Shown here piece after piece: positions 3,633 through 47,527 of a stretch of DNA of 64,000 bases. Origin of the DNA: a virus; the IMG/VR virus record IMGVR_UViG_3300049027_000140, positions 1 through 64,000 of that record, one strand, 5' to 3'. The translations under genes were made by a program, and so were the position numbers. A model generated the notes under the pieces. It was given only the letters and a program-made list of their open reading frames with translations, searched no databases and was not told the origin of the DNA. Positions within the stretch are counted from its first letter, which is position 1. Every line of letters begins with the position of its first letter.

Positions 3633-3661
3633 GTTATACGTCGCGACGTATTACCGGTCAA
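3633..3661 (-). promoter_or_regulatory. sigma70 promoter TTGACC-17-TATAAC containing operator ATACGTCGCGACGTAT (3636-3651)
   Basis: near-consensus hexamers, 17-bp spacer, perfect 16-bp palindrome repeated at 4412 and 4560. Confidence 0.8.
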
Positions 3662-4549: not shown

Positions 4550-4578
4550 TTGCGCGACCATACGTCGCGACGTATCAT
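4550..4578 (+). promoter_or_regulatory. sigma70 promoter TTGCGC-17-TATCAT with operator ATACGTCGCGACGTAT (4560-4575)
   Basis: third copy of same palindrome; divergent from 4409-4437 promoter. Confidence 0.8.
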
Positions 4579-16031: not shown

Positions 16032-16059
16032 GGTGTAGCAGGTGAAGAGTTGGGCGCAA
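16032..16059 (-). promoter_or_regulatory. putative internal promoter TTGCGC-16-TACACC
   Basis: lies in gap after DnaC-like gene; same -35 as other phage promoters. Confidence 0.45.
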
Positions 16060-16068
16060 GGTGGATAG

Positions 16069-16998
16069 TCATGCAGCCTTGGTGTTCGCGACGGGGTGGA
16101 GGTCGATAATCACGCCCTGCTCCTCGATGCGGTTGATGGTCGGCGGGCCATACCGCTCCTCGAGCTCAGCGATCGTGCGCCCGCTGGTGATGAACGTCGG
16201 CCTCCCGCGGTCCTCGCAGCGGTCGTAGATCACATCGCGGATGACGGCCGGGTCCTCCTCGAACCCCACCTCATCAAGGATCAGCAGCGTCGCGCGCTGG
16301 GCGATGCGCTCGAGTTCCGCCAGCTCACCGAGCCGCGTCTCACGGCGCGCCCGTCCGAGCTTCAGGCCGGATACCACCCTGACGCCGCGCGCGAAACGGA
16401 ACGCGTTGGCGTCAAGTCCCCCTTGCAGGGCCTCGTCGAGGATGCGGTGCGCGCACGCGATTGCTGTCTTGCTCTTGCCAATGCGCGTTGGCCCGACGAG
16501 AAGCACGTTACCAACCTTCCGCTTCCAGACGGCGCGCTCGATGAGCGGTAGCGCTGCCTGCGGGTTCGCCGACCGCCGCGCCGCCTCGCGCGCCTTCTGC
16601 GTTGCATCCGCAAACTCCTGCTTCCCCACGCGGCACCACTCGAGCGAATCCGCGGCGCTCGCCGCGGACCCCACACGAGAGACCGAGTCGTACGCCTCCG
16701 CGAGCAGCGCGAGTCGCTGCCGCCGGCGGTCCTTCTCGGCGCACGGCGCGCAGTACCCGCCGCGGCGCTCGACCGGCTTGTCGCACCCGCCGGCGCAGCG
16801 GAACACGAAGTCCTTGGGCGGCTCGATGCCTGCCCGGCGAGCAAAGAGCCCGACGAGTTCGTCGAAGCCGCTGTCCTGTGGTCCTGCTGGGGCCTCAATG
16901 CGCCTGCGCTCTTCCACCTCACGCAGCATCCGGACGTCGTCCTCAGTGAGGTCGCCGGATGCGTCGCCCGTGTCGTCGATCTCGTGCTCGGTGCTCAT
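16069..16998 (-). CDS. DnaC/IstB-like AAA+ helicase loader
   Basis: Walker A GPTRIGKS, Walker B LLILDE, RPTFITS, N-terminal Cys motif; follows initiator gene. Confidence 0.85.
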   Translation of the reverse strand: MSTEHEIDDTGDASGDLTEDDVRMLREVEERRRIEAPAGPQDSGFDELVGLFARRAGIEPPKDFVFRCAGGCDKPVERRGGYCAPCAEKDRRRQRLALLAEAYDSVSRVGSAASAADSLEWCRVGKQEFADATQKAREAARRSANPQAALPLIERAVWKRKVGNVLLVGPTRIGKSKTAIACAHRILDEALQGGLDANAFRFARGVRVVSGLKLGRARRETRLGELAELERIAQRATLLILDEVGFEEDPAVIRDVIYDRCEDRGRPTFITSGRTIAELEERYGPPTINRIEEQGVIIDLHPVANTKAA

Positions 16999-18203
16999 AT
17001 CCCGTCCTGCTCAAGGTGAAGTGCGAGCTCCGCGGCCCGCTTTCGCTGATGGGCCGCTCGCTCGTCTGGGTCGGTCCGACCGCCCTGGAACTGCACCACG
17101 CGGCCCGATCGCGGCCCCGTTGTCGGCTTGCCACCCTGAAGCCACTCCGCCCACTTCGGCGGCGTGAACCCCTTCTCGAAGTGCTCCTGGCCGGACTTCG
17201 CCCGCCTGTACTCCGCGGAACTGGCCCGAATCCACGCGGTGGCGGCTTCGCCCGTGAGTGGCTGTCCGTCGGCGTCGAGCGCGTACGCCTTCAGGATCGG
17301 CCAGAAGACCGACTTCTGCGGTGGCACCGCGAACGGTGCCCCGGTAACGTCGGTCTGCCCCTGCGCGTAGGCCTCGGCGTAGCGCTGCCCTGCCGGCGGC
17401 TCGTCGGCTGCGCGCGCAGAGCTCCGGGGTGCACGGCGCGCGGCTTTCGCCGGCGCCGCCGCACCCGCCGGCGCCATGGCGCCGAACAGGGGCAGCGGGC
17501 CGGTGACCGCCGCCCGCTTGGGCGACTCGACCGGCGGCGCCGGGCGCGCGGAGGGCATCGGGCGGACGCTGGCAGGCGTCGGCTCGGGGTCGCCGCCGCC
17601 ATCGAACTCCGGCGTCCCGGCCACTGCGCCCACATCGGACCCCTCCACGCGCGCGGCGCTAGCCGGCGCGCAGTCCCCCGCAGGGGGGTGGTCTTCCTTG
17701 GGTGCTTCCATGGGAGATTCCCTGAGAGATTTGTGTCCGGTTACCGGACCCCTGCCGTCCGGTAATCGGACCCCTGCCGTCCGGTAATCGGACCCCTGCC
17801 GTCCGGTAATCGGACTGGTCCGATTATCGGACTGGTCCGGCAGCTGGACTAGTCCGACCATCGGACTGGTCGCGGGAGCCTCGACCGGCGGCGACGGCGC
17901 GCGGACGACGCTGCCGCCGCTGGTCCGGACGAGGTACATCGTCGAGGCGCGGCCGCCTGGGCCGGCGGGCGCGCACCCCTGCCGCTCGATCCAGCGCGCC
18001 GCCTCGAGCTCGTTCAGGCACGTCACGACCGTGCTCCTCGCGAGGCCGGTCATCGCAGCCAAGCGAGACAGCGACGGCCAGGCGCGGTCGGAATCCCGTG
18101 CGTGGTCGGCCAGCACCAGCAGGACGAGCCGGTGCGACGCCGACATCTGCTTGGGTGAGAGGGCCTCCAGGACCCGCATCACCTCGAAGATGGCGAGCGC
18201 CAT
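16995..18203 (-). CDS. phage replication initiator (N-terminal winged HTH, lambda O analog)
   Basis: RLVLLVLADHA...AWPSLSRLAAMTGLARSTVVTCLNELE; internal iterons. Confidence 0.85.
   Translation of the reverse strand: MALAIFEVMRVLEALSPKQMSASHRLVLLVLADHARDSDRAWPSLSRLAAMTGLARSTVVTCLNELEAARWIERQGCAPAGPGGRASTMYLVRTSGGSVVRAPSPPVEAPATSPMVGLVQLPDQSDNRTSPITGRQGSDYRTAGVRLPDGRGPVTGHKSLRESPMEAPKEDHPPAGDCAPASAARVEGSDVGAVAGTPEFDGGGDPEPTPASVRPMPSARPAPPVESPKRAAVTGPLPLFGAMAPAGAAAPAKAARRAPRSSARAADEPPAGQRYAEAYAQGQTDVTGAPFAVPPQKSVFWPILKAYALDADGQPLTGEAATAWIRASSAEYRRAKSGQEHFEKGFTPPKWAEWLQGGKPTTGPRSGRVVQFQGGRTDPDERAAHQRKRAAELALHLEQDGI
17735..17866. repeat. replication origin iterons: 7 copies of GTCCG-N5-(C/T)GGAC
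   Basis: copies start at 17735, 17757, 17779, 17801 (22-bp period) then 17818, 17835, 17852 (17-bp period). Confidence 0.85.
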
Positions 18204-18928
18204 CAGTGCGCCTCGTGGGGAAGGATGTCGTCTCCCACCCGGGATCCGTATTCCACGCCGGCGTCGAGGGCCGCTGTAGCTCCCATCTCGCTCGGGTCGA
18301 TGCACTCATTCTCGTCATCGGCCATGCGCTGCTCAGCAACGGCCATGTAGTGTTGGGACAGCGCCTCGTTGATTCGGTCGACGACCACGGCGACGCTCTC
18401 GACGGACGTGGCCGCGCGCCTGCCGTCGAGGCGGGCCTGAGTCAGCGGGTTGGTCGGGGCGCTGATCTCGGAGGCGAGGTACTTCGCGTTGAGCAGCGTC
18501 GCTAAGTCATCGTCGGACAGGACCCCTGTGTGCCCGAACGTGACAACGTCCGCGTCCGCGATCTTGTCGCCGATTGGCATTCCCTCAGCGATGCCGAGGA
18601 TGAACTGCACCTGCTCGTCCGTGAACCCATGCATGGCAGGCGCCTCTCGAGGCTTCCGCTTCTGCTCCTCCGGGAAGGCCCACCGCATCCCATCGATGAA
18701 GCCAATCAGACGCGGATCCGCGCGGAACCACTCGCCGTGGAGCCGCAGGTCGGCGAAGCGCTCGTGGAGGCCCCGCTCGTGCTGCGGGCTCCCGGGGGCG
18801 AACGCGAGCAGCTTCAGCGGCTTTGAGTTGCCGGTCTGGAGCGCCGAGAGCCGCGCAAACGGGTCCCCGCCCGTGTAGCCGATCTTGATGGCCCCGTCGG
18901 GGGCCTCCTGGATGAAGTAGATCGGCAT
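18203..18928 (-). CDS. GIY-YIG superfamily (T5orf172/MUG113-like) protein
   Basis: IYFIQ...IKIGYT...RLSALQTG...ERGLHERF...GEWF. Confidence 0.85.
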   Translation of the reverse strand: MPIYFIQEAPDGAIKIGYTGGDPFARLSALQTGNSKPLKLLAFAPGSPQHERGLHERFADLRLHGEWFRADPRLIGFIDGMRWAFPEEQKRKPREAPAMHGFTDEQVQFILGIAEGMPIGDKIADADVVTFGHTGVLSDDDLATLLNAKYLASEISAPTNPLTQARLDGRRAATSVESVAVVVDRINEALSQHYMAVAEQRMADDENECIDPSEMGATAALDAGVEYGSRVGDDILPHEAH

Positions 18929-19266
18929 CAGGCGGCCCTCCGCGTGCGGCCCGCCGGCGTCGGCAGACCGAGGTCACGGGCGGCCATCTTGGCCCCGTGC
19001 ATGACCGACGTGTGGTCGCGGTCGAACAGGGCGCCGATCGATGGGTAGCTCCACCGCCGTTCCTCGTGGAACCACAGCCAGATCCGGTGTCTCACACGCA
19101 CGACGTGGGCATGCCGCCGCGTGCCGAACACGTCCTCCAGCAGGACGTTTCCGTCTATGCAGAATTTGTTGATATCTCCCAGCAGTCCGAGCTGGTCGAG
19201 GTGGGCCAGCCGGCGCTTCAGGTTCTTGACTTGGTCAGCATCCGGCGATAAGGATTCCTGCGTCAC
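18928..19266 (-). CDS. stand-alone DnaA C-terminal-like HTH protein
   Basis: SYPSIGALFDRDHTSVMHG matches DnaA domain IV motif. Confidence 0.8.
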   Translation of the reverse strand: MTQESLSPDADQVKNLKRRLAHLDQLGLLGDINKFCIDGNVLLEDVFGTRRHAHVVRVRHRIWLWFHEERRWSYPSIGALFDRDHTSVMHGAKMAARDLGLPTPAGRTRRAA

Positions 19267-20333
19267 GAGACCACCTCTCGTTCTGAGACGCCGACGGCTC
19301 CACCCGCCGGCGTTTCGCTTTTTGTGGCGCGCCTGCTCGCCGCCGCGAACAAGCCAAGCTGTCCACGGCTCGCAGCCCTTGCCGCCACGCCGTCGCTCTC
19401 CGCGTCGAACCGCGCGGCCATGGCGCGGCAGTAGGTCTCCTCGCGCTCGACCAGGATGCAGCGCCGGCCGTTTCGGACCGCGCCGATCCCGGTCGTCCCA
19501 GAGCCCGCCGTCAGGTCGATGACCGGCTCGTCCGTGTCCTCGCGGTCGATGAAGAGCTCGAGCAGACGCACCATGAGCTCTTCCGGCTTCTGCGTGGTGT
19601 GGACGCGCTCCTCGCCGTCGGGTGAACCGCGGTCGAGAACGATCGGGATCGCCCAGTCCGCCGGGAGCCCGCCGCCGTTCCAGCGCTTCGCCTTCGGCTT
19701 CCCGCGAGCGCCGCGCGCATGGTGGAGGAGGATCGCCTCGCGGCTGACGGCGGGCCGGTCGCCGGAGACCTGCGGCGTCGAGCAGAGCTTCCGCCACGAG
19801 CCCTCGCGCACGTACTCGGCCCCTGCGGCAGCGAGCGAGAGACGCCAAAGCCATGTCCCCTCGGTGTCGGCGAAGGTCGCGATCCAGCGGGCGGCCAGCG
19901 CGACGGCCGCGCGGGCGAGCGATCGGCGGTCCCGTGGCCAGAGCGGGTCGAAGCCGATCTCCATCTTCCGGCGCTTGTTCGCGGGGCTCGTGAGGGAACC
20001 GCCGGCCTTCGAGCCGACGACCCCGTGCCGCTTTCCGAGAGACCGCGCGCTCGCGTGCACGTGGGGCGAGTAGGCCGGGTCGAATGCGACGAACCCGCGC
20101 ACGCCGGCGGCGGCGAGCTGAAGCCCGATAGCGGCGCCGTCTCCGTGGTAGATGGTGACCAGGCCGCGCTGGTAGAAGGGCGTGGGGAGCCCGGTCGGGA
20201 CGTCCAGCGGCTCCGCCAGCATCGCTTGTCGCTCGGCCTCGACCAGCAGAGTCCAGAGCGCGGCGCCGTTGGCGTCCTCGAGGACGAGCTCCTTCAGAGC
20301 GGTCAGCAGAGCGGGCTCGATCTCCGGCTTCAC
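19263..20333 (-). CDS. DNA amino-methyltransferase (N6A/N4C, beta class)
   Basis: IYHGD...FDPAY (motif IV variant), HTTQKP, VIDLTAGSGTTG (motif I). Confidence 0.85.
   Translation of the reverse strand: MKPEIEPALLTALKELVLEDANGAALWTLLVEAERQAMLAEPLDVPTGLPTPFYQRGLVTIYHGDGAAIGLQLAAAGVRGFVAFDPAYSPHVHASARSLGKRHGVVGSKAGGSLTSPANKRRKMEIGFDPLWPRDRRSLARAAVALAARWIATFADTEGTWLWRLSLAAAGAEYVREGSWRKLCSTPQVSGDRPAVSREAILLHHARGARGKPKAKRWNGGGLPADWAIPIVLDRGSPDGEERVHTTQKPEELMVRLLELFIDREDTDEPVIDLTAGSGTTGIGAVRNGRRCILVEREETYCRAMAARFDAESDGVAARAASRGQLGLFAAASRRATKSETPAGGAVGVSEREVVS
19285..19325 (+). terminator. GC hairpin plus T-run (antisense to operon)
   Basis: GAGACGCCGACGG-ctccac-CCGCCGGCGTTTC then gctttttg. Confidence 0.4.
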
Positions 20334-20977
20334 GCTCCCCTCCCCGTCCACACCTCGACGAGCACGCAGCCTTTCCCGGGCGGCGCACTCTCGACCCACG
20401 CCGCGAGGTCGATCTCGCCCTGGGAGTCCCCGCGGAGGTACCCCAGCTCGGCCGGGCCCATCTGCTCCTGCATCCTGGCCCAGACATCCGGCGAAAGGTG
20501 ATCCGGGCGCTTGCGCTTCCCGATCTGGAGCCGGTCCAGTGGGACCTTCGTGAAACCCGTGTCGTAGTCCTTCACGCGACCGCTGAACCGCACGATGCGG
20601 ACCATCGGCCGGCCGGTGAGGGGAGCCGCCGCGCGCGCGCCGATCTGCTCCAGCATGCGCTTCAGCACGCGGGCCTTGAGCTTCTTCAGCGCCCACGTGC
20701 CGAATCGCCCCATCTCCACGAGGCGGTTCGTCGTCGGCGCGTCTTCGAGCGGCAGCACGCAGCGGAGCACCAGAGAGCCCACGCCCTCCACGCGCTCGAC
20801 GGCTGGCTGCACACGCCCGCCCTTGAGCTTCTTCTCCGGCGGCGGCGGCTCGGCGAGGCGCTGGTCGACGAACGCGAGCGCCGCAGCCACGTCGAACGCC
20901 TTGGCGGGCTTCCTCGGCTTCTTCGCGGCGGCCGGCTCACCCGTGGTGGCCCGGCGGCGGAACGCGGCGCGCCTCAT
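20330..20977 (-). CDS. RusA-like Holliday junction resolvase
   Basis: PTTN...KDYD...KVPLDRL...GYLRGD acidic pattern, typical position. Confidence 0.6.
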   Translation of the reverse strand: MRRAAFRRRATTGEPAAAKKPRKPAKAFDVAAALAFVDQRLAEPPPPEKKLKGGRVQPAVERVEGVGSLVLRCVLPLEDAPTTNRLVEMGRFGTWALKKLKARVLKRMLEQIGARAAAPLTGRPMVRIVRFSGRVKDYDTGFTKVPLDRLQIGKRKRPDHLSPDVWARMQEQMGPAELGYLRGDSQGEIDLAAWVESAPPGKGCVLVEVWTGRGA

Positions 20978-21123
20978 GACGGCTCCTCCTCTTGCGCGGG
21001 CGCCTCGGACTCGTCCTGCTTCGGCTCCACCGGGAACATCTCCAGCGTCCTCTCGTCACGGATGTCGCGACAGGCGCACTCGCCGCCGCCGAGCAGTGGG
21101 CACCACGGCCTGTGGATTGTCAT
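20974..21123 (-). CDS. small Cys/His protein
   Basis: coupled; HxxWC...CxC. Confidence 0.45.
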   Translation of the reverse strand: MTIHRPWCPLLGGGECACRDIRDERTLEMFPVEPKQDESEAPAQEEEPS

Positions 21124-21713
21124 GTGGCCTCCTGCGCTGCGCGAGCCTGCAAGGACGGTATCAGAGCGCAAGTCGCGACTCTGTCATGCGCGGAGCGGAG
21201 GCGCCATGTGGGGAGAGTAGGAATCGACGATGTGCGTTGTCGGTGCAAAGCGCGCTCGCGGTTGCGCTTCGCCGTCAGCTCGTCTCGACGGCATCCGCAA
21301 CTCCGCACCTTCTCGCGCACGAGGTCGTCCTTGAGCACGGTGACGATCTGCCCGCAGGTGCAGCGGCAGCGCACGCGGAGCCGGGTGCGGCGCCCGCGCC
21401 GGCGCTGCGTCACGAAGGCGAGCGTCCGGAGGCGCCCGTGCCACCTTCGGACCGGCGCGCACCGGCGCCGCTTGCCGGCGGAGACGATCTCGATGGGCTG
21501 CGCCTCGAGGATCTCGACGTGCCGCAGCAGCAGCCCGGCCACGAGCAGGTGCAGAATCGCCGTGTGCTCGAGGCGGTAGAGTAGCGCCGGACCGACGAAG
21601 CGCGCGCCAGAGTCGCGAACCTCCTCGGCGGCGATCTCGGCGGCGTGCGCCTGGATGGCGGCGAGGTCGCAGCCGGCGACGTTCGCGGCAAGGGCGAGGA
21701 CGTCGAGCGTCAC
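21120..21713 (-). CDS. protein with CxCG...SCGC zinc module typical of HNH/AP2-associated phage proteins
   Basis: RCRCTCGQIVTVLKDDLVREKVRSCGC. Confidence 0.6.
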   Translation of the reverse strand: MTLDVLALAANVAGCDLAAIQAHAAEIAAEEVRDSGARFVGPALLYRLEHTAILHLLVAGLLLRHVEILEAQPIEIVSAGKRRRCAPVRRWHGRLRTLAFVTQRRRGRRTRLRVRCRCTCGQIVTVLKDDLVREKVRSCGCRRDELTAKRNRERALHRQRTSSIPTLPTWRLRSAHDRVATCALIPSLQARAAQEAT

Positions 21714-22336
21714 TCGGCGCTCCCGGCGCGCTTCGGCGCCCTCAGCCCGCGGTACTTCTCCAGCACCTGCTCCGCGGTGGGCTGCTGCTTCCGCGGCGCC
21801 GCCGGGACGGGTGCAGCACTCTCCACGGCGGGGCGCGCACGCAGCGCCGGCGGCGGCATCGGGCCGCCCGGGGCGCGCGGGCCGCGAGGCCGGCCGGGCC
21901 CCCGCTTCGGCGGCGCAGGCGGCTCCGGCGCAGCGGCGGGCTCCACGGCGTGAGGCTCGTCGTCCAGCGGCTCCACGGGCTCCGGCTCGACCTCGGCGTC
22001 GCCGGCCGCCTCGATGCGCTCCGCCAGCGCGAGGAGCTTGCCTCCAGCGAGCAGCAGCCCGGCCGCGTACCGGCGGAGCAGCCGCGCCAGCGCCGTCCCG
22101 GCGAGGCGGAGGAACGCCGGGCGCTGCTGGATCTCCCGCACGACCTGCTCCGCGTACGCGTGCGCGCGCTGCATCTCCTCCGGCGAGAGCCACTGCGTGA
22201 AGTCGACGGCGGGTGTGGGCTGCTGCGGCTCTTGCTGCACATGGCTCCGATCCGGGCGGCGCGCGGCGCGCCCTGCTGGCGTGGCGGTCGGCTCGGCCGA
22301 CATGTCGATGGCGAAGGCGAGTCCAAGCTGCGTCAC
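21710..22336 (-). CDS. hypothetical protein, Pro-rich C-terminus with AT-hook-like RGPGRPR
   Basis: coupled ORF. Confidence 0.55.
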   Translation of the reverse strand: MTQLGLAFAIDMSAEPTATPAGRAARRPDRSHVQQEPQQPTPAVDFTQWLSPEEMQRAHAYAEQVVREIQQRPAFLRLAGTALARLLRRYAAGLLLAGGKLLALAERIEAAGDAEVEPEPVEPLDDEPHAVEPAAAPEPPAPPKRGPGRPRGPRAPGGPMPPPALRARPAVESAAPVPAAPRKQQPTAEQVLEKYRGLRAPKRAGSAE

Positions 22337-22659
22337 AGGGGACCTCCGGAAACGACGTACGGGTGGAGCTCCAGCCCGGGCTCGCGGTACCGGTCGAGCT
22401 CAGCGACGGCGCACCCACGCCACCAATCGGAGCTCGCGAGGTCGCCTTCGCCGCGGCAGCGGAGCGCGTGGCTCGCGAACGCGGCGGCGCTCCGGACGAA
22501 GTGCAGGCGGCCGGTGAACCGCACGGCCGCTGCGGCGTCGTAGAGAACGCGGGCGCGAGCGACGTCGTCGGTCGCGGCGTCGATCCCGGCGAGGTCCCCG
22601 CCGTGACCGATGGCTCGGAGGTCGGCGGCGACGGCGGCCAGCAGCTCGTCAAGCGTCAC
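22333..22659 (-). CDS. hypothetical protein
   Basis: coupled ORF. Confidence 0.55.
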   Translation of the reverse strand: MTLDELLAAVAADLRAIGHGGDLAGIDAATDDVARARVLYDAAAAVRFTGRLHFVRSAAAFASHALRCRGEGDLASSDWWRGCAVAELDRYREPGLELHPYVVSGGPL

Positions 22660-23120
22660 GGGCGCCTCCCTTCAGCGGCGCGGGCGGCGCGCATCCCGAT
22701 CAGCGCGGCGATGACGCGGACGACGATTTGCTGATCCGTCGTGCCGTCCGCCACGACGACCATGCCGATCGGGCTGGTGCGGCCGCGGCGCTTGCCCTCC
22801 GCGATGAAGCGCCGCGCCCCGTCGAGGCTGCTCTTCACCTGGACGCGGTACAGGCGATCGTCGTCGCACAAGACGACGATGTCCGCGCCGATCCGGTCCT
22901 CTCGCGCGCCGCCGGCGCGTACGCCGACGATCCAGTTCGGCAGCGCCGCAGCGCGGAGCGCGGAGAGCACGCGGCGCTCGTTCGCGAAGCCGCGTACCTC
23001 GCCGAGGCGCTCTCGGGCGGCGCCGGTCGCGGCGGCGACCTCGGCGGCCGTGGCTCCGCGGCGGAGCAGGGCGGCCTCACGCGCGTCCTCGGCGCGGTCG
23101 ATCAGGCCGGCGAGGCTCAT
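22656..23120 (-). CDS. PD-(D/E)XK-family nuclease-like protein
   Basis: G..NE...ED..GADIVV...VQVKSS. Confidence 0.65.
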   Translation of the reverse strand: MSLAGLIDRAEDAREAALLRRGATAAEVAAATGAARERLGEVRGFANERRVLSALRAAALPNWIVGVRAGGAREDRIGADIVVLCDDDRLYRVQVKSSLDGARRFIAEGKRRGRTSPIGMVVVADGTTDQQIVVRVIAALIGMRAARAAEGRRP

Positions 23121-23401
23121 TCGGCACCGTCCTCTCCGCCGACGCCGCTCATGTCGCTGTCGCCGGCGTCGGTGGCGCACACGGGCATCGCGTCGCAGGC
23201 GGCGTGGCAGTCGTCCCGCAGCACGCCGCAGTCGCGGTGGCACGAGTCGCACGCGTCCTTGACGAGGCAACCCGTCAGCGCGAGCAGCGACAGGAGGCCG
23301 AGCGCGCGCTTGGCCCGTTCGGACAGCGCGAGCAGCGCCTCGCCGCGCGCGGCAGCGAAGATCAGCAGGGCGCTGACGAACACGAGGACGGTGCCGCTCA
23401 T
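23117..23401 (-). CDS. Cys-rich putative lipoprotein
   Basis: lipobox-like LALTGC followed by six Cys. Confidence 0.55.
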   Translation of the reverse strand: MSGTVLVFVSALLIFAAARGEALLALSERAKRALGLLSLLALTGCLVKDACDSCHRDCGVLRDDCHAACDAMPVCATDAGDSDMSGVGGEDGAE

Positions 23402-23528
23402 CGGGAAGCCCTCCCGGCCTGGGCATCGCGGCCCGGGGCGCGCCTGGCGCTGGGCGCCCGGGACGTGTGCGCGCTCTGGGCGCACGAAGGCGCGGCGGGG
23501 GCCGCGGCAAGGACGTCCAGCGGGGGCA

Positions 23529-23918
23529 TCACGCCTCCCCCGGAGCGGTCTCGTGGACCGAGCCGACGTGGTGGGAGGCCGCGTGGACCGCGCGCGCGTT
23601 GCCGGCGCTCCGGCACCAGGTCGCGTGCTCGTCGTCGTTGGTGGTGCCGCAGTCGTCGCAGGCGGCGGGGGCGACGTAGCGGCGCGGGCCGTCAGCGAGG
23701 CGCTCGTACAGGCGGAAGGTGCGGGGGCGGCGGCGTCGCATGGGGCTCTCCTGGTGTCCGCCGGCGATGACGCGCAGGTCGGGCTGGTAGTGGCAGCAGC
23801 AGGCGCAGGGGTCGGTGCCGATCCGGTGGTCGCAGAGCTCCGGGTCGACGTGGTCGCAGCAGCAGCCGACGTCGCCCGCAGCGTCGCGCCACTCGGTGGG
23901 GGTGACGGGGCGCATCAC
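23529..23918 (-). CDS. Cys-rich hypothetical protein
   Basis: coupled ORF. Confidence 0.5.
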   Translation of the reverse strand: MMRPVTPTEWRDAAGDVGCCCDHVDPELCDHRIGTDPCACCCHYQPDLRVIAGGHQESPMRRRRPRTFRLYERLADGPRRYVAPAACDDCGTTNDDEHATWCRSAGNARAVHAASHHVGSVHETAPGEA

Positions 23919-24121
23919 GAGGCGGCTCCGTCGGTGAGGCATGCCGGGCAGGTCACCGCGCCGCGCTCGAACGCGTAGAGGCGGCCGTCGTCGCGGAGGT
24001 ACACGCCATCCGGCAGACCCTCTGGCTGCCCGCTCCACTTCGGCGTGTCCCACGAGCCGTCGCAGGCGATGCGGACGTGCGGCTGGCTAGCCTCGTCGGA
24101 GAGGTGGACGGGCGCGCTCAC
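23915..24121 (-). CDS. small zinc-binding hypothetical protein (H...C...VTCPAC)
   Basis: coupled ORF. Confidence 0.6.
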   Translation of the reverse strand: MSAPVHLSDEASQPHVRIACDGSWDTPKWSGQPEGLPDGVYLRDDGRLYAFERGAVTCPACLTDGAAS

Positions 24122-24845
24122 CGGCCACCTCCCGCCGCGCCGGAGCGCGAGGAGGCGGAGGTGGTGGCGAAAGTGACCGTCGAGCCGCGAGTGGCGTGGA
24201 TGGCGTCGAGCGCCGCGGTGAGGTCAGCCTTGGACCGCGGCTTCCGCAGATCGTCGTTCGACGAGAACGCGCGAACCCCGGCGTCGGTGACCACGCACAG
24301 CGCTATGTGCTCCGCGCTGTACGGCCAGCGAGCGACGCCGCAGTCGCAGATGATGTGGACGATCGTCCGGCTGGCCCGGGTGCGCCCGACCTCCAGCGGC
24401 AGCGACCCGGGCTCGACGATGAGCGCCGCCGTCCCGTCGCCGCTGCGCTGGAGCAGCTGAAGCGGCTCGGCCCACGCGAAGGTGCCGTCGTCGCAGTACC
24501 CGAAGCCGCCGGTGGGCGCGAACGTGGCACTGAAGCCAGCTAGAAGGCGGCCCAGCCTCGCGTTGTTCTCTTCGGCGAACCTGTCACCGGCCGGACCCAC
24601 GCCGACGGGCACGTGAGCGAACGCGAGGAACCCGTCGAGCCACCACGACAGGAGAACGTGCAACGCGTAGGCGTCGTAGACGCTGTAAGCAGAGTCGCTC
24701 TGCGTCAGGAACTGGGCCACCCACGTTTGGCCGGCGTCGCTGTAGAAGAGGCGGAGGCAGTGCTCGACCTCCTCCGGGTCCATCCCCTTGGCCCGGTCGC
24801 GCCAGTAGCAGTTCTGGAGCTCTCGCTCGTGAAGCGTGAGCGAGC

Positions 24846-24849
<4 letters not shown>
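24118..24849 (-). CDS. hypothetical protein, translationally coupled to integrase stop
   Basis: ATGA overlap at 24846-24849. Confidence 0.65.
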
Positions 24850-26536
<1,687 letters not shown>

Positions 26537-26540
<4 letters not shown>

Positions 26541-26818
26541 GGCTTCTGGCTCCCGACCGTCGAGAGGGACAGCAGGCCCTTCCGCTGGGCGATCTGCTGC
26601 GCGCGGCGCGCGGTCACCTCATCGACGGGCCCCGAGGGGCGATAGGGCGGGCGCGGACCGCGACGCGACTGGGTTACCGGCGCCGCATTGGCTGGGAGGG
26701 GCGGCTTCGCGTCGGCGCCGTCTGCGCCAGGCTCCTCCAGCACCGCGAGCATCGCCTTGAGCCCAGCCGTGACAGCGCGTCGAAGCTGATCGTCCATGGT
26801 CACCTTCCTCCCCTCCAT
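26537..26818 (-). CDS. small basic protein upstream of int (possible recombination directionality factor)
   Basis: coupled to integrase start; function by position only. Confidence 0.5.
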
Positions 26819-26933
26819 CACGTCACCCACCCTTCCGCCGGCACCTGCTCCTCGCTGGCGCCGTAGTTGACGTCGCCATCGCGCCTCGGGCGTTCCTCGT
26901 GCTCGCGCGCGTCGTCTGCCTCCACGTCGCGCA

Positions 26934-27659
26934 TCAGCATGCGGCCCTCCGGGAGAGGTACACGTCGCACGCCATGAGCCCGTCGACCGCCCACTCGACG
27001 CCAACCGCATCTTTCAGGAACCACGTGATGCGGCTGAGCGCGCGGCGCCGCTGCCAGTCGGCGACGGCGCCGTGCTCCGGGAGAGCCGCCTCGAGCATCT
27101 CGATCGCCGAGGCGGTGGCGCCGATGACGTCCGCCGCCGGCGCCTCATCCTCCGCCAGCGAGCACATCGCCGAGGTGAACGCCGCCGGGCGCCTCGGGGT
27201 CGCGTCGGCGATCGTGGCGAGGATGAGCCGCCGGGCGTCGTCCCGCGTCCACGGCGTCGGCTCCTCGGGCGAGCGCGGCGGCGCCAGCGGCTCAAGCGCG
27301 GCGACGGGCGGCGGGGCCGGGAGCGCGGGGGAGACCTCGCCGGCGTAGTCGAAGCCGTTCTCGAGGAGCCAGCGCGCCGTCGCGATAGGATCCTGGAGGC
27401 GCTGTCCGTCGACGAGCAGCGGGTGCCCGCTGCCGGTCCACCGCTGCCCCTCACGCGGCGCCGGGGCGACGACGCGTAGCCCCACCGGGATCGAGTCGAT
27501 GCGGCAAAGCGGCGCGTCATCGGCTGAGGCGCCGCGGGTGACCCACCACCTCTCATCGAACGCGCGCGTGATCACCCAGCCGACGTTGAGGGCCCACTCC
27601 CACGCGACCCTCGCCCCCGGCTCGAACACCTGCGGCACCTCCGTCTTCAGCTCGCGCAT
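26934..27659 (-). CDS. hypothetical protein
   Basis: GGAGG RBS; coding-like composition. Confidence 0.6.
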   Translation of the reverse strand: MRELKTEVPQVFEPGARVAWEWALNVGWVITRAFDERWWVTRGASADDAPLCRIDSIPVGLRVVAPAPREGQRWTGSGHPLLVDGQRLQDPIATARWLLENGFDYAGEVSPALPAPPPVAALEPLAPPRSPEEPTPWTRDDARRLILATIADATPRRPAAFTSAMCSLAEDEAPAADVIGATASAIEMLEAALPEHGAVADWQRRRALSRITWFLKDAVGVEWAVDGLMACDVYLSRRAAC

Positions 27660-28072
27660 ACGTCCTCCACGGCGCTCTCCAGCGCCTGCACGGCGAGACG
27701 CTGCGGCGCCTCGCATCCTCCCGCGATCCGCTCCAGAGCTCCGCGCAGGTGGCGCGCCTCCGCGCCGACGACCGCCGCCCGGTCGCACTCGGCGCGCAGG
27801 TGGCGGTGGTCCTCGACGCGGAGGATCGTCAGCCCGTGCTTGTCGATCTCCCGCACGAAGTCCGCCTGCTCGACCACCTTGGCGCGCGCGGCGTCGCGCT
27901 CTCCGCGGAAGCGCTTCGCCGTCGCGATGATCCTCACCAGCCGGGCCCGCATCCGGCGCGCCCTCGCCTCGAGCACCGCGGTGCTCGCGTCCCGCCGCGT
28001 CTCGGCGACGTGGTAGGCGATGAGCGCGGCGCCGAGGAGCCACGGGACCAGCTGCACCCCCCGGGCCCTCAC
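27647..28072 (-). CDS. membrane-anchored coiled-coil protein
   Basis: N-terminal TM, GTGA coupling. Confidence 0.55.
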   Translation of the reverse strand: MRARGVQLVPWLLGAALIAYHVAETRRDASTAVLEARARRMRARLVRIIATAKRFRGERDAARAKVVEQADFVREIDKHGLTILRVEDHRHLRAECDRAAVVGAEARHLRGALERIAGGCEAPQRLAVQALESAVEDVCAS

Positions 28073-28416
28073 GATGCCAGCTCCACGGGTGCGGGTGAGC
28101 CGTCGCGGCGAACGATGCCGCTCTCCGTGGGCTCCGGGCGCTCGGTACCGAGGAGTTCCTCGAGAGCCTCGCGGGCGTCTCTGTACGCGAGCGCCTCCGC
28201 CTTGCCGGCGCCCTGGGACACCCTGGCCGCGTCCGCGCGCCTGTAGCGGACCCACGCCTTCGAGATGTCGCCGAGGAGACGGTGCGCTTCGGCGTTGCGC
28301 TCGGCCTGGTACCAGAGCCGCTGCCGCGTCCGCCGTACCGCGGAGACGCCGCCGGTGAAGAGGCCAGCGAGGAAGCCGAGGACGACTCCAGTGGTGACGA
28401 TCGCGAACAGGTTCAT
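28069..28416 (-). CDS. membrane-anchored hypothetical protein
   Basis: N-terminal TM; coupled. Confidence 0.6.
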   Translation of the reverse strand: MNLFAIVTTGVVLGFLAGLFTGGVSAVRRTRQRLWYQAERNAEAHRLLGDISKAWVRYRRADAARVSQGAGKAEALAYRDAREALEELLGTERPEPTESGIVRRDGSPAPVELAS

Positions 28417-28904
28417 GTGCGCCCCTCCTTCGCTCGCCGCGCCTGGGCGATGCGGATCAGGTCGTGTCCAAGTAGTTCAACAGCATCGGTCGGGAGTGCT
28501 TCGCTGTAGGCTTTCGCCACCTCGACGCCCCAATCGGGCCGCCTTTCGGCGACGAGAAGCAGGTGCTCCAGGGCGAACGGCTTTGTCGGCTCGTCGCTTA
28601 GCGCGAGCGAGACATGCTGCGGCTGCACGTCGACCACGCACGCAAGCTCACTGAACGAGATCGGCCTGAACGCACCACGCACGAGTTTCACGGCGCGCTT
28701 GCGCGCCTCGTGCCTGACGCCGCTCTGGAGCTGATAGGAACTGCGCGCCTGCGCAGGTGACGGGACCACCGGCGCAACCACATTGCGCGCCGCGACCTGT
28801 GCCGCAAGCTCTGCGATATGGATGACGCCGGCGCCGCTCGGCGGAGACGCACTCGCGCGCTCTCCGGATGGGATACTACTGCTCTTGTCACGGAAGATGC
28901 TCAT
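28413..28904 (-). CDS. CII-like HTH regulator
   Basis: SFSELACVVDVQPQHVSLALS HTH-like; downstream of cro. Confidence 0.5.
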   Translation of the reverse strand: MSIFRDKSSSIPSGERASASPPSGAGVIHIAELAAQVAARNVVAPVVPSPAQARSSYQLQSGVRHEARKRAVKLVRGAFRPISFSELACVVDVQPQHVSLALSDEPTKPFALEHLLLVAERRPDWGVEVAKAYSEALPTDAVELLGHDLIRIAQARRAKEGRT

Positions 28905-28952
28905 TGTTCTACGATCCCCCGCAGACGGTTGGGGCCGAGCGACGCACCAGAG

Positions 28953-29423
28953 TCACTCGGCGACATTCTCTCTCGCGTGATCGCCGGCATCGTCCCGGCA
29001 AATGAGGACGGCGGCGGAGGCTACATGCCCCATGGGGGCGGGATAGGCGGCGTCGATCTTCCGCTGGATCGCGTCGAGGAGGTCCTCGACAGACACGGCA
29101 TCGAGGCCGGTGGCAATGACGCCGCGAGCGCGCTCGAGGTCGGCCTCGATGGCGGCGATGCGCGCACGGGCCTCGGTCATCCCAGCGAGTGCGCCTTGAT
29201 GGGCCTCGGCCTGGACTCGGGCGGCAGCCTCGAATGCGTCGGCGCGCGCCCGCTGCTCGCGCTCGCGGTGCTGGGCGTTCTCCAGGAGCGCCTCAAGGGC
29301 GGCGATACGCTCGCTCTTGCCGTCGCGCTCCGGACGGTCGACGCCGTCCCAGGTCGCCTCGAGGTCGGCGGCGGGCGGCGCGCTGGTGACCACCTCGGGG
29401 TCGGCATTCTCGTGCGGGTGCAT
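28953..29423 (-). CDS. coiled-coil hypothetical protein
   Basis: GGAGG RBS. Confidence 0.6.
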   Translation of the reverse strand: MHPHENADPEVVTSAPPAADLEATWDGVDRPERDGKSERIAALEALLENAQHREREQRARADAFEAAARVQAEAHQGALAGMTEARARIAAIEADLERARGVIATGLDAVSVEDLLDAIQRKIDAAYPAPMGHVASAAVLICRDDAGDHARENVAE

Positions 29424-29426
29424 GGG

Positions 29427-30062
29427 CTACCTCCCACCCGCGGCGGCGCGGGCGCGGAGCGCTTCGAGGCGCTCGCGGCGCGCCTGCTGGTACTGATGCA
29501 AGCCGCGGATGGGCGCAAACCGGAGCGCGACGACCACGCCGTTTCGCGTGAGCCACGACCGCCTCGGGACCGCGCCGCCGGTCCAGAGCTCAATCATCTC
29601 GGCGGCGATCTCGTCCGGAGTCGACCGGCCGCAGCGCCAGTAGCAGATGCTCTGGGTCGAGCACGGGATCTCAGCGGCCGCCTGGGCCTGGGTTACCCCG
29701 CGGGAATTGAGGAACTCGTCGAGCAGAAGCTCTCCGTCGCGGCCGTCGAACCCCGCATCGAACTCGCGGAGCACCTCGCCACGCACGCGGCCACCAATCG
29801 TATCGATGTAGTCCGCTACTGGCCCGGTCGGCAGGAACCACTCGGTGGTGCCGTCGCCGGCCTCCAGGTACATGCGCGCGTGGCGGAAGTCCCAATGCCA
29901 GTCCTTCTCTTCCCGCTGGCCACCCGGGGCCGTGGCGATGACCTCGAGCGCATCGCCGATGGAGGCGGAGATGTCGGCAGCCCGGCGCTCAGGGCGCACC
30001 GAGTGACCGACCTTGATCGGGCCGCCATGCGGGCGCTGAAGGAAGTAGACGACGGAGCCCAC
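29427..30062 (-). CDS. GIY-YIG (T5orf172-like) domain fused to C-terminal Cro/XRE HTH
   Basis: VYFLQ...IKVGHS..PERR...EWF then TQAQAAAEIPCSTQSICYWRCGRSTP...IELWTGGAV. Confidence 0.75.
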   Translation of the reverse strand: MGSVVYFLQRPHGGPIKVGHSVRPERRAADISASIGDALEVIATAPGGQREEKDWHWDFRHARMYLEAGDGTTEWFLPTGPVADYIDTIGGRVRGEVLREFDAGFDGRDGELLLDEFLNSRGVTQAQAAAEIPCSTQSICYWRCGRSTPDEIAAEMIELWTGGAVPRRSWLTRNGVVVALRFAPIRGLHQYQQARRERLEALRARAAAGGR

Positions 30063-30065
30063 GGG

Positions 30066-30392
30066 TCAGGCTGCCCCTCGAGCCGCAGCCATCGCCTCGC
30101 GCTCGCTCTCGACCAACCAGTCATCGGCGAGGATCGTCGGCTTGCTGAGCTTGCCGCCCTTGACCGCCTTCCGGCTCCAGAGCGCAATGTGGGCGCGGCT
30201 GATGGTGTCGGGGCGGGCGATACCGTGCCGCCAGTTGTGGATGGTCGCCCTCGCGTACGGGGGCGACTTCCCGACGAGGACGGTGATCTCGGAGGCGACC
30301 TCGGCGGATGAGAGGCCGCGCTCGTCGACGAGCTCGTCGAACTTCTTGGACCCGGGGGTCGGGTACGGACCCGGCTTGGCTGTTCTTCTCAC
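30066..30392 (-). CDS. Cro-like HTH repressor, leaderless
   Basis: LSSAEVASEI...RATIHNWRHGIARP; divergent from CI-like gene; GTG 6 nt after TACAAT. Confidence 0.7.
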   Translation of the reverse strand: MRRTAKPGPYPTPGSKKFDELVDERGLSSAEVASEITVLVGKSPPYARATIHNWRHGIARPDTISRAHIALWSRKAVKGGKLSKPTILADDWLVESEREAMAAARGAA

Positions 30393-30398
30393 GCCCCA

Positions 30399-30428
30399 AT
30401 TGTATGCACGACAAGACGAACTGCGCAA
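30399..30428 (-). promoter_or_regulatory. lytic (cro) promoter TTGCGC-18-TACAAT with putative operator TCGTCTTGTCGTGCATAC
   Basis: hexamers at 30423-30428 and 30399-30404. Confidence 0.65.
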
Positions 30429-30486: not shown

Positions 30487-31032
30487 ATGCGCAGATCCGA
30501 AGCGAGGAAGGTGCTCGCCGCGTATGTGGCCGACCGGCTCGGGCGCGAGTGCGCCGAACGACGCGGCGCGCAAGCGGAGATCGCTCGGGCGCTTGGCTTC
30601 AGCCGTGGGCACCTCAGCAACGTGCTGCGGGGCCAGTACTCCGTCGGCGAGGACCTAGCCGCACGATTGGCCGACTACTGGGGGATGACTTACGACCAGC
30701 TCCATGCGGAGGCCGAGAAGTGGGGCAAAACGTCTCAGCGACCGGCCGCAGTGGATAGACCAGAGCCTTGGCGCCGATTGAAGGATCGGCCGGAATGGAC
30801 AGCGAGCCTCGAATCTGCTCGGGCGTTCTACAAGGATATCCCGGACGACTATTTCCTGCGCGTTGGCGCCATCCTGGACGACGTGAGCCGTCACATTGAC
30901 GCGCAGTTCATCGGCGAAATGGCGAGGGTGATCTGGAGTGCCGAGGTCCGTGAGTCTGCCGTGCCCCCCGTATCTGTGGTGGAGACAACGAAGCACAGTC
31001 ACGGGAAAGACAAAAAGTCTGGCGGCAGTTGA
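30487..31032 (+). CDS. CI/ImmR-like XRE repressor (no S24 peptidase domain)
   Basis: AQAEIARALGFSRGHLSNVLRG HTH; AGGAG RBS; divergent from cro. Confidence 0.8.
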   Translation: MRRSEARKVLAAYVADRLGRECAERRGAQAEIARALGFSRGHLSNVLRGQYSVGEDLAARLADYWGMTYDQLHAEAEKWGKTSQRPAAVDRPEPWRRLKDRPEWTASLESARAFYKDIPDDYFLRVGAILDDVSRHIDAQFIGEMARVIWSAEVRESAVPPVSVVETTKHSHGKDKKSGGS

Positions 31033-31561: not shown

Positions 31562-31616
31562 TCGTCGTTCGCGCAATACATTTCCGGTTGACGTATTGTC
31601 TTGCGAGCAATACCAT
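31562..31616 (+). promoter_or_regulatory. rightward early promoter TTGACG-17-TACCAT with two TyGTC-N6-GCAATAC operator-like sites
   Basis: -35 31588-31593, -10 31611-31616; sites 31562-31579 and 31596-31613. Confidence 0.75.
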
Positions 31617-46664: not shown

Positions 46665-47527
46665 TTGCGGATCTGCCCGACAGACATCATATTAGGATAT
46701 CGATGCAGCTGCCAATTGGACGCCGGTTGAAGCACAGCGACATCACGCCGGAGATGGAGACCGAGCTTGCGCGCCAGTGTCAGGCTGGCGACACGCGAGC
46801 CGGTGCCGCTCTGGTCATGGCGAACGAGCCCATGATCTACAAGTTCGTGCGGCGGTACTTTCGCAAAGGCGTCCGGACCGAGGACATCATGCAGGCGGCG
46901 CGGTTTGGGTTCTACCGCGGGATCTTACGATTCGACCCGGCCGTGGGCGCTCGGCTCACGACCTATGCGCTCTACTGGGCGAGGAACGAGGCGGTCGACG
47001 CACTCCAGGGCGAGGGGCCCACGATCCGCATCCCGCGGCACGTCTTCGACGCGATCTACAAGTCGGCGAAGACCGGAGAGGCACTGGATGAGGAGACGGC
47101 CGAGGCGGCGCGGCTGCTGACCACGCCGAGCCTCGACATCCCGGTGCGCAGGGACGGGTCCACGCGCGGCGACCTCGAGGTGAACCCGATGCCGGGCCCA
47201 GAAGCATCGGCCGAGGCCGACGACGCCCAGCGACGCCGCCGGGAGCTCATCCAGCGGGCGCTGACGTGGCTGACCGATCGGGAGCGCGAGATCGTCGAGC
47301 GTCGGTTCTGCGAGGAGCCGGAGAGCTACGAAGCGATCGGCGCCTCGCTCGGCTTCACGAAGCAGAGGACCGAGCAGATCATGAAACGCGCGCTGCCGAA
47401 GCTCGACCGGGCCGTGCGGCGCGTGATGGCGAAGGACGACTGGATGCTCTGGGGCGCGCGCGGGCCGCTGAAGCCGCTTGGGGAGACGGCGAGGGGCGAA
47501 GCGGAGAGCGTGGAGGTGGCGAGGTGA
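46661..47527 (+). CDS. sigma70-family RNA polymerase sigma factor
   Basis: region 1.2 ETELARQCQAGD, region 2 EDIMQ...FDPAVGARLTTYALYW, IRIP, region 4 LTDREREIVERRF...SYEAIG..LGFTKQRTEQI; start could be ATG near 46703. Confidence 0.9.
   Translation: MIADLPDRHHIRISMQLPIGRRLKHSDITPEMETELARQCQAGDTRAGAALVMANEPMIYKFVRRYFRKGVRTEDIMQAARFGFYRGILRFDPAVGARLTTYALYWARNEAVDALQGEGPTIRIPRHVFDAIYKSAKTGEALDEETAEAARLLTTPSLDIPVRRDGSTRGDLEVNPMPGPEASAEADDAQRRRRELIQRALTWLTDREREIVERRFCEEPESYEAIGASLGFTKQRTEQIMKRALPKLDRAVRRVMAKDDWMLWGARGPLKPLGETARGEAESVEVAR

Follow-up and report, generated by a model that had tools for sequence, protein, structure and literature searches.

The early gene chain

The stretch analysed here (the window) comprises positions 1 to 64,000 of a virus record of 98,115 bp (IMGVR_UViG_3300049027_000140), classed as linear in IMG/VR, with a GC content of about 71% and a CheckV completeness estimate of 78%, which represents an uncultured, temperate phage of Sorangium-type myxobacteria known from the viral contig alone. 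Its leftward early gene chain contains, between the regulatory genes at its head and the replication genes at its end, a tyrosine integrase gene (int) with the phage attachment site (attP) inside the open reading frame (ORF), an arrangement in which integration would cut the chain and could make expression of the replication genes dependent on excision. The host is most likely a Sorangium-type myxobacterium, since the nearest relatives of the integrase are found in Sorangium/Polyangiaceae chromosomes and the attachment core matches Sorangium tRNA-Lys(UUU) exactly. Because the high GC content keeps ORFs open in every frame, genes were called from codon-position GC (GC-frame) plots together with the inspection of start codons and ribosome-binding sites (RBS); a megablast of the region against a phage collection gave no matches.

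The position of int mid-way in one leftward chain, noticed in a first-pass annotation of the same DNA, was confirmed when the coordinates were checked. From the start of g4 (28904) to the stop of the gene for a DnaC-like helicase loader (16069) all 22 junctions are overlaps of 1-13 nt each, to be compared with 67 of the 128 same-strand junctions outside the chain, as counted on automatic gene calls for the rest of the genome. Two apparent gaps, 26819-26933 and 23402-23528, are occupied by small bridging ORFs on the minus strand: sORFa (26818-26934, 38 aa), with a TGATG overlap at each end, and sORFb (23398-23529, 43 aa), which is joined by TGATG and ATGA overlaps and has a GC content at third codon positions (GC3) of 0.88. 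In particular, the int stop and the start of the following gene, g10, share the ATGA at 24846-24849, exactly where an overlap had been proposed, and GGGAGG is present ahead of it.

The chain is headed on the minus strand by an early leftward promoter, 'Pcro' (30399-30428), in which TTGCGC (30428-30423) is separated by 17 nt from TACAAT (30404-30399); it is recognised both from the sequence itself and from a pattern derived from this genome, and it agrees with the cro promoter previously placed at 30428. The promoter faces an XRE-type repressor gene (30487-31032, plus strand; Pfam HTH_31, E 5.4e-6), which starts at ATG 30487 with an AGGAG RBS and is divergent from the cro-like gene. The latter (30066-30392, minus strand, 108 aa), called from the GC-frame plot and the sequence, is named by its position only and has no Pfam or PHROG matches; its most likely start is GTG 30392, about 7 nt past the -10 element, and its mRNA may be leaderless. 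It is followed by g2, a T5orf172/GIY-YIG-like protein of 211 aa with a helix-turn-helix (HTH), and g3 (156 aa), both assigned from domain matches and gene calls (together 28953-30062, minus strand); the three genes are separated by 3-nt gaps and then by a single gap of 48 nt (28905-28952) from the overlapping part of the chain. The rightward operon, placed behind TTGACG-17-TACCAT at 31588, encodes RecE/RecT-type proteins and no replication initiators.

The overlapping part begins with g4, g5, g6 and g7 (26934-28904, minus strand, from gene calls), whose function is unassigned and of which g4, g6 and g7 are conserved in a metagenomic relative, L024, described below. After sORFa, g8 (from 26537 up to sORFa, minus strand, 93 aa) adjoins the int start and is excisionase-like by position only, having no family matches and no similarity to Uoi of the myxophage Mx8. 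Past int lie g10 to g19, including sORFb and g17 (20330-24849, minus strand, from gene calls), with every junction overlapping; g10 and g11 have conserved counterparts in L024 and in a second relative, L017, and g17 (21120-21713, minus strand) is an HNH endonuclease according to PHROG. Most of the functional labels of the first-pass annotation, in fact, could be retained, namely the methyltransferase, the initiator, the DnaC-like loader and the GIY-YIG-HTH protein; the 'RusA' and 'CII-like' labels were dropped, as neither Pfam nor PHROGs support them.

Two further features lie in this region. A hairpin with a 10-bp stem (28953-28985) spans the g3 stop, just ahead of the sole 48-nt gap of the chain; it has no U tract, its fold z-score is not significant, and it may act as an attenuator where the regulatory genes give way to the remaining operon. 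The heptamer GCAATAC is found in only three copies in the 98-kb record (30457, 31573 and 31607), all in the immunity region, where they adjoin the start of the repressor gene and the rightward promoter, and may be either an extended -10 element or an operator half-site.

Integrase and attachment site

The tyrosine integrase ORF (24846-26540, minus strand, 564 aa) is the sole integrase found in the 98-kb record. It matches PF00589 (E 2e-18) with a score of 67 bits, against a cut-off of 27.1, over residues 202-396, and its catalytic motifs are intact in translation: TGVRQGE (RxxE), HDLRHS (HxxR) and QRYAHL with Tyr391. The catalytic domain ends at about residue 396, while the ORF continues for about 170 codons and runs through attP.

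The attP core (25148-25193, minus strand) reproduces without a mismatch 46 bp from the 3' part of Sorangium tRNA-Lys(UUU), an interval that extends from anticodon stem to acceptor end. It spans approximately residues 447-465 of the integrase ORF, downstream of the catalytic tyrosine, and its tRNA sense is that of int and of the whole chain. Arm-type repeats of the families D1 and D5 flank the core, three of the GTCAC/GTGAC type on the int side (25243-25272) and two GGTCACG copies on the g10 side (25089-25106). The hairpin noted earlier at 25121-25143 proved real: on the minus strand, directly past the tRNA 3' end, it has a 10-bp stem of -12.9 kcal/mol. Two further hairpins follow, making three in total past the tRNA end; a U tract is present in none, and the first, judged by its sequence, is not a canonical terminator.

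The roughly 100 integrase codons past attP (24846-25147) show a weak coding signal (GC3 about 0.78) and no matches. They are probably translated in the free form of the phage because they end in the precise ATGA overlap with g10, and the geometry of the ORF predicts that integration would exchange the C-terminus of the integrase.

The nearest relatives of the integrase (40-48% identity) reside in Sorangium/Polyangiaceae chromosomes at tRNA-Lys(UUU). At eight such loci (L001-L008), from Sorangium/Polyangiaceae chromosomes and a metagenome-assembled genome, a related integrase gene adjoins this tRNA gene, which is convergent to int; the orientation of the phage core relative to int is opposite to that at all eight. 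These elements were considered as integrated relatives of the phage and rejected, the integrase being the only gene in common with the phage chain and the tRNA orientation being opposite.

Replication module

The last genes of the chain, all on the minus strand, form a replication module preceded by g20, an N6/N4 DNA methyltransferase (19263-20333; PF01555, E 3.9e-13; PHROG 67), and by g21, of 112 aa with a DnaA C-terminal-type HTH, and g22, of 241 aa with a T5orf172/MUG113 domain (together 18203-19266; domain matches). The gene g23 (16995-18203) encodes an O-like replication initiator (HTH_36; PF13730, E 3.5e-11) that matches ten PHROG replication-initiation families, including 1032, 270 and 391, with a best E of 8e-15; it is the only HTH_36 gene of the 98-kb record. 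Its stop is overlapped by g24 (16069-16998), the last gene of the overlapping chain, which encodes a DnaC/IstB-like helicase loader of the AAA+ class (PF01695, E 1.7e-7; PHROG 50, E 3e-12), of the DnaC type and not of the lambda P type. DnaB was not found in the 98-kb record.

A putative origin (17690-17868) lies inside the initiator gene and consists of seven iterons and an adjoining stretch of lower GC content. The iterons are palindromic 15-bp copies (GTCCGGTAATCGGAC) at 17735-17868, spaced by 22, 22, 22, 17, 17 and 17, and the GC dip at 17685-17749 adjoins the array, which resembles a lambda-style origin embedded in the initiator coding sequence. The features that characterise a lambda-type O/P module are all present, that is an O-family winged-HTH initiator, iterons in its gene and an adjoining loader.

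Promoter and terminator scans

A phage-specific promoter pattern, TTG[AC][CG][CG]-N16-18-TA[CT][AC][ACT][TC], was derived from this genome and has five matches in 98 kb (3633-3661, 4550-4578, 16032-16059, 30399-30428 and 31588-31616), all five at the heads of gene chains. Neither this pattern nor a loose one (TTGNNN-N16-18-TANNNT) has any match on the minus strand from 25146 to 16069, and none of the TTG[AC][CG]N boxes in the interval between attP and the loader has a -10 element at the right distance. Nowhere does the 98-kb record contain a sigma-54-like site, and an analysis of k-mers enriched in upstream gaps yielded no usable late-promoter motif besides the TTGCGC -35 box. The earlier remark that no promoter-sized gap separates attP from the initiator was therefore borne out in a stronger form, with no intergenic space and no sigma-70- or sigma-54-like sites; the next promoter-like site, TTGCGC-16-TACACC (16032-16059, minus strand), lies in the first real gap past the chain (16068-15988).

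A generic sigma-70 scan was discarded since it missed even the obvious cro promoter, its -35 rule being too strict for this GC content. The matches of a terminator scan were dismissed, as all were inside genes and their number was that expected by chance. The gene called at 46727-47527 is a putative sigma-factor gene.

Relatives with a serine integrase

Homologues of g10 with 71-75% identity are present in two metagenomic sequences, L024 (IMGVR_UViG_3300049020_000084) and L017, a 3.2-kb metagenome contig. The head of the L024 chain contains a divergent switch, a TTGACG-17-TAACGT promoter, a cro-sized gene and three genes with 3-nt gaps followed by another gap, after which homologues of g4, g6, g7 and sORFa, an integrase, g10 and g11 all overlap. 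The integrase of L024 (7866-10001) and L017 (451-2526) is a non-homologous large serine recombinase of 711 aa, with Resolvase, Recombinase and Zn_ribbon_recom domains and a C-terminal MerR-like HTH, which replaces both the xis-like gene and the tyrosine integrase, and its stop likewise overlaps the g10 start as ATGA. The type of recombinase has been exchanged while the position and the coupling to g10 are unchanged, and the mid-chain position is therefore conserved across the swap.

More distant homologues of g10 (about 35% identity) do not adjoin integrases, and g10 is consequently not integration-specific. An alignment of L024 with L017 shows no outstanding conserved block that would mark the attP of the serine integrase. 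The last 18 residues of sORFa are 100% identical in L024 and 89% in L017, neighbouring proteins being 42-59% identical, and this conserved C-terminus sits at the upstream edge of the exchanged integration cassette.

Predicted consequence of integration for the replication genes

The attP core, the arm-type repeats, the intact integrase and the lack of a recognisable downstream promoter support the proposal of the first-pass annotation that integration would physically cut the early operon. On this sequence evidence it is well supported that the chain would be split just past the integrase catalytic domain and that the replication module would lose its only recognisable promoter. The early lytic operon would be lambda-pR-like, with an Mx8-style integration module, composed of a small ORF, a gene in the position of an excisionase and a tyrosine integrase with attP inside its ORF, inserted after the regulatory genes and ahead of the replication module. 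While the genome is free or circular, a single transcript starting at 30428 would proceed from cro through int, g10, the methyltransferase and the initiator, with the origin (ori), to the loader, and translation would be coupled at each junction along the chain. Once recombination takes place within the 46-bp tRNA-Lys core, this unit would fall into two parts: at one end of the prophage, the genes from cro to int would keep the promoter and run through a copy of the core into host DNA; at the other, because core and chain run in the same sense, the genes from g10 to the DnaC-like gene would sit directly behind a regenerated, intact tRNA-Lys, made of the host 5' part and the core, followed by the phage sequence from 25147 downwards with its hairpin. 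After induction, the prophage could produce integrase and putative excision factor in situ, and both the expression of initiator and loader from the promoter and transcription across ori would resume only once excision rejoins the two halves, so that the resulting order would be to excise and then to replicate.

Such an 'excise before replicate' lock against in-situ replication is plausible, and the chances that an excision-gated early operon is the whole explanation of the locus are judged to be about even. The lock presupposes that the chain is co-transcribed and contains no cryptic promoters, that read-through from the tRNA is effectively blocked and that the phage benefits from the arrangement. 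Several points weigh against it. Genome searches found no lysogen, attL/attR junction or integrated relative: g10 is absent from 5 Sorangium genomes, its profile finds nothing in 401 genomes of the order, the initiator gave nothing beyond weak domain matches in 151 Polyangiaceae genomes, and initiator and loader have no matches in IMG/VR. The scans recognise sigma-70-like and sigma-54-like consensus only, and promoters inside coding sequence for other sigma factors, including the putative one of the phage, would escape them; other replication functions or promoters may, in addition, be missing from the contig because it is 78% complete. The hairpin past the tRNA lacks a U tract and, as a consequence, read-through from the strong tRNA-Lys promoter into the genes from g10 to the DnaC-like gene is possible. 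Finally, the cassette has been exchanged between relatives and its mid-chain position could thus reflect a recombination hotspot and not selection for gating.

One alternative deserves to be taken seriously, if held only tentatively, in which the split is real but has no regulatory effect: the cassette would have come to lie mid-chain through modular exchange, and the replication genes would be expressed in situ anyway, either from promoters inside coding sequence, read by a host alternative or a putative phage sigma factor, or by tRNA-Lys read-through. The exchange of tyrosine and serine integrases at one position fits a recombination hotspot, the missing U tract is compatible with read-through, and the integrated element ICEKp1 transcribes int from the adjoining tRNA promoter (PMC13023037). 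Against this alternative, however, stand 9 kb without intergenic space or consensus promoter, the tight translational coupling of int and g10, which persists even with a non-homologous integrase, and the gene order shared with the very distantly related Mx8.

It is improbable that the arrangement serves expression in the lysogen, with g10 to g20 acting in lysogenic conversion or defence under the constitutive tRNA-Lys promoter, hairpins that merely attenuate and replication restrained by other means. The tRNA core is in sense with the chain here but antisense to int in Mx8 and in the Sorangium elements, as this explanation would have it, and the Mx8 methylase Mox is expressed in lysogens. The three consecutive hairpins past the tRNA end are also reminiscent of the attenuating stem-loops of ICEKp1 (PMC13023037). 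Nevertheless, read-through would also express the initiator and the loader, since both are translationally coupled to the chain, and could fire a chromosomal ori; moreover, neither Pfam nor PHROG assigns a defence or conversion function to any of the genes from g10 to g19. Finally, the idea that the tRNA-like segment is a remnant or captured tRNA fragment at which neither integration nor a cut occurs is very hard to sustain: although no lysogen or attL/attR junction was found and, relative to int, the core is inverted with respect to all of the L001-L008 loci, the exact 46-bp match to Sorangium tRNA-Lys ends at positions typical of attP/attB cores, five arm-type repeats flank it, and the integrase is intact, and those most similar to it (40-48% identity) also sit at tRNA-Lys(UUU).

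A broader form of the excision-gating proposal appears somewhat unlikely, namely that the mid-operon integration module is a selected checkpoint, common to Mx8 and to this Sorangium-type group and kept across the swap of integrase type, that makes in-situ replication transcriptionally impossible. Host death after a failed induction, amplification of flanking host DNA and lateral transduction all depend on the order of excision, replication and packaging, an order whose known control acts at the level of regulation, by timing when Xis and Int are expressed. If excision gating is true, replication-gene expression would depend on excision in a hard-wired, topological manner, which is a different and simple way to set this order; such gating would block in-situ replication, with its host killing, escape replication and lateral transduction, and would explain the mid-operon integration module in unrelated myxophages. 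Mx8 has the same layout together with genetics and int/uoi mutants, which makes the idea directly testable in Myxococcus xanthus. If gating is false, the region is still a clean case of tyrosine-for-serine cassette exchange at a fixed intra-operon position.

Comparison with known systems

The closest parallel in layout is Mx8 (AF396866), in which, according to the deposited annotation and PHROG scans, imm, mox, uoi, int, p13, p14, p15 (HNH) and then p19 and p20 follow each other on one strand, p19 being a replication initiator with T5orf172 and p20 a DnaC-like loader; the attP core is at about 6466, inside int. The attP of Mx8, like that of the phage described here, is contained in the integrase ORF, some 100 codons ahead of its stop; integration of Mx8 creates a new int 3' end and exchanges the integrase C-terminus (PMC6070905). 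In both phages the core is the 3' part of a tRNA gene, a small gene is placed just upstream of int, and an HNH endonuclease, an initiator and a DnaC-like loader are encoded downstream on the strand of int; integration therefore separates int from the Mx8 replication genes as well. The proteins are, however, essentially unrelated (Int BLASTP E 0.44, no alignment between Uoi and g8), only the T5orf172 and methyltransferase domains being shared, and by these comparisons the integration module is a functional analogue of that of Mx8 and not a member of the Mx8 protein families. Furthermore, the tRNA core of Mx8 is antisense to int, whereas here it is in sense and would put the replication half behind an intact tRNA; gaps of 48, 170 and 58 nt follow int in Mx8, in contrast to no intergenic bases here; and only in the present phage is int part of a cro-headed operon. 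The 2018 review of Mx8 makes no mention of a replication-gating role or of an effect on the replication genes (PMC6070905).

Lambda shares with this phage the divergent repressor/cro switch, the iterons in the O gene and the adjoining loader. When lambda integrates, its pL unit is interrupted immediately downstream of int, which alters int expression (sib retroregulation). The int gene and attP of lambda are, however, part of the pL operon, and nothing but non-essential b-region DNA follows attP; the replication genes remain on pR, so that excision-defective prophages replicate in situ, whereas here the replication module would be cut off.

Among integrative and conjugative elements (ICEs) and related elements, the transfer genes of Tn916 are also under state-dependent control. 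In ICEKp1, ICEclc and ICEEc1, expression depends on the integrated or circular state, and a promoter at the end of an ICE reads across the joined ends in the excised form only; in integrated ICEKp1, read-through from the tRNA promoter into the first gene (int) is attenuated by stem-loops (PMC13023037). The controlled genes of these elements are those for the integrase or for conjugation, whereas here they would be the phage initiator and loader, with ori. In the mycobacteriophages BPs and Brujita, attP is inside coding sequence and integration changes the C-terminus of a protein as part of the switch (PMC3694055); there, in contrast to the integrase ORF and the proposed transcriptional disconnection of this phage, it is the repressor that is cut and protein stability that is affected. 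By analogy with these systems, the proposed gating would belong to the known class of state-dependent control, which includes lambda sib, Mx8 intP/intX, integration-dependent immunity and ICE switching, and its new element would be a replication module as the set of controlled genes.

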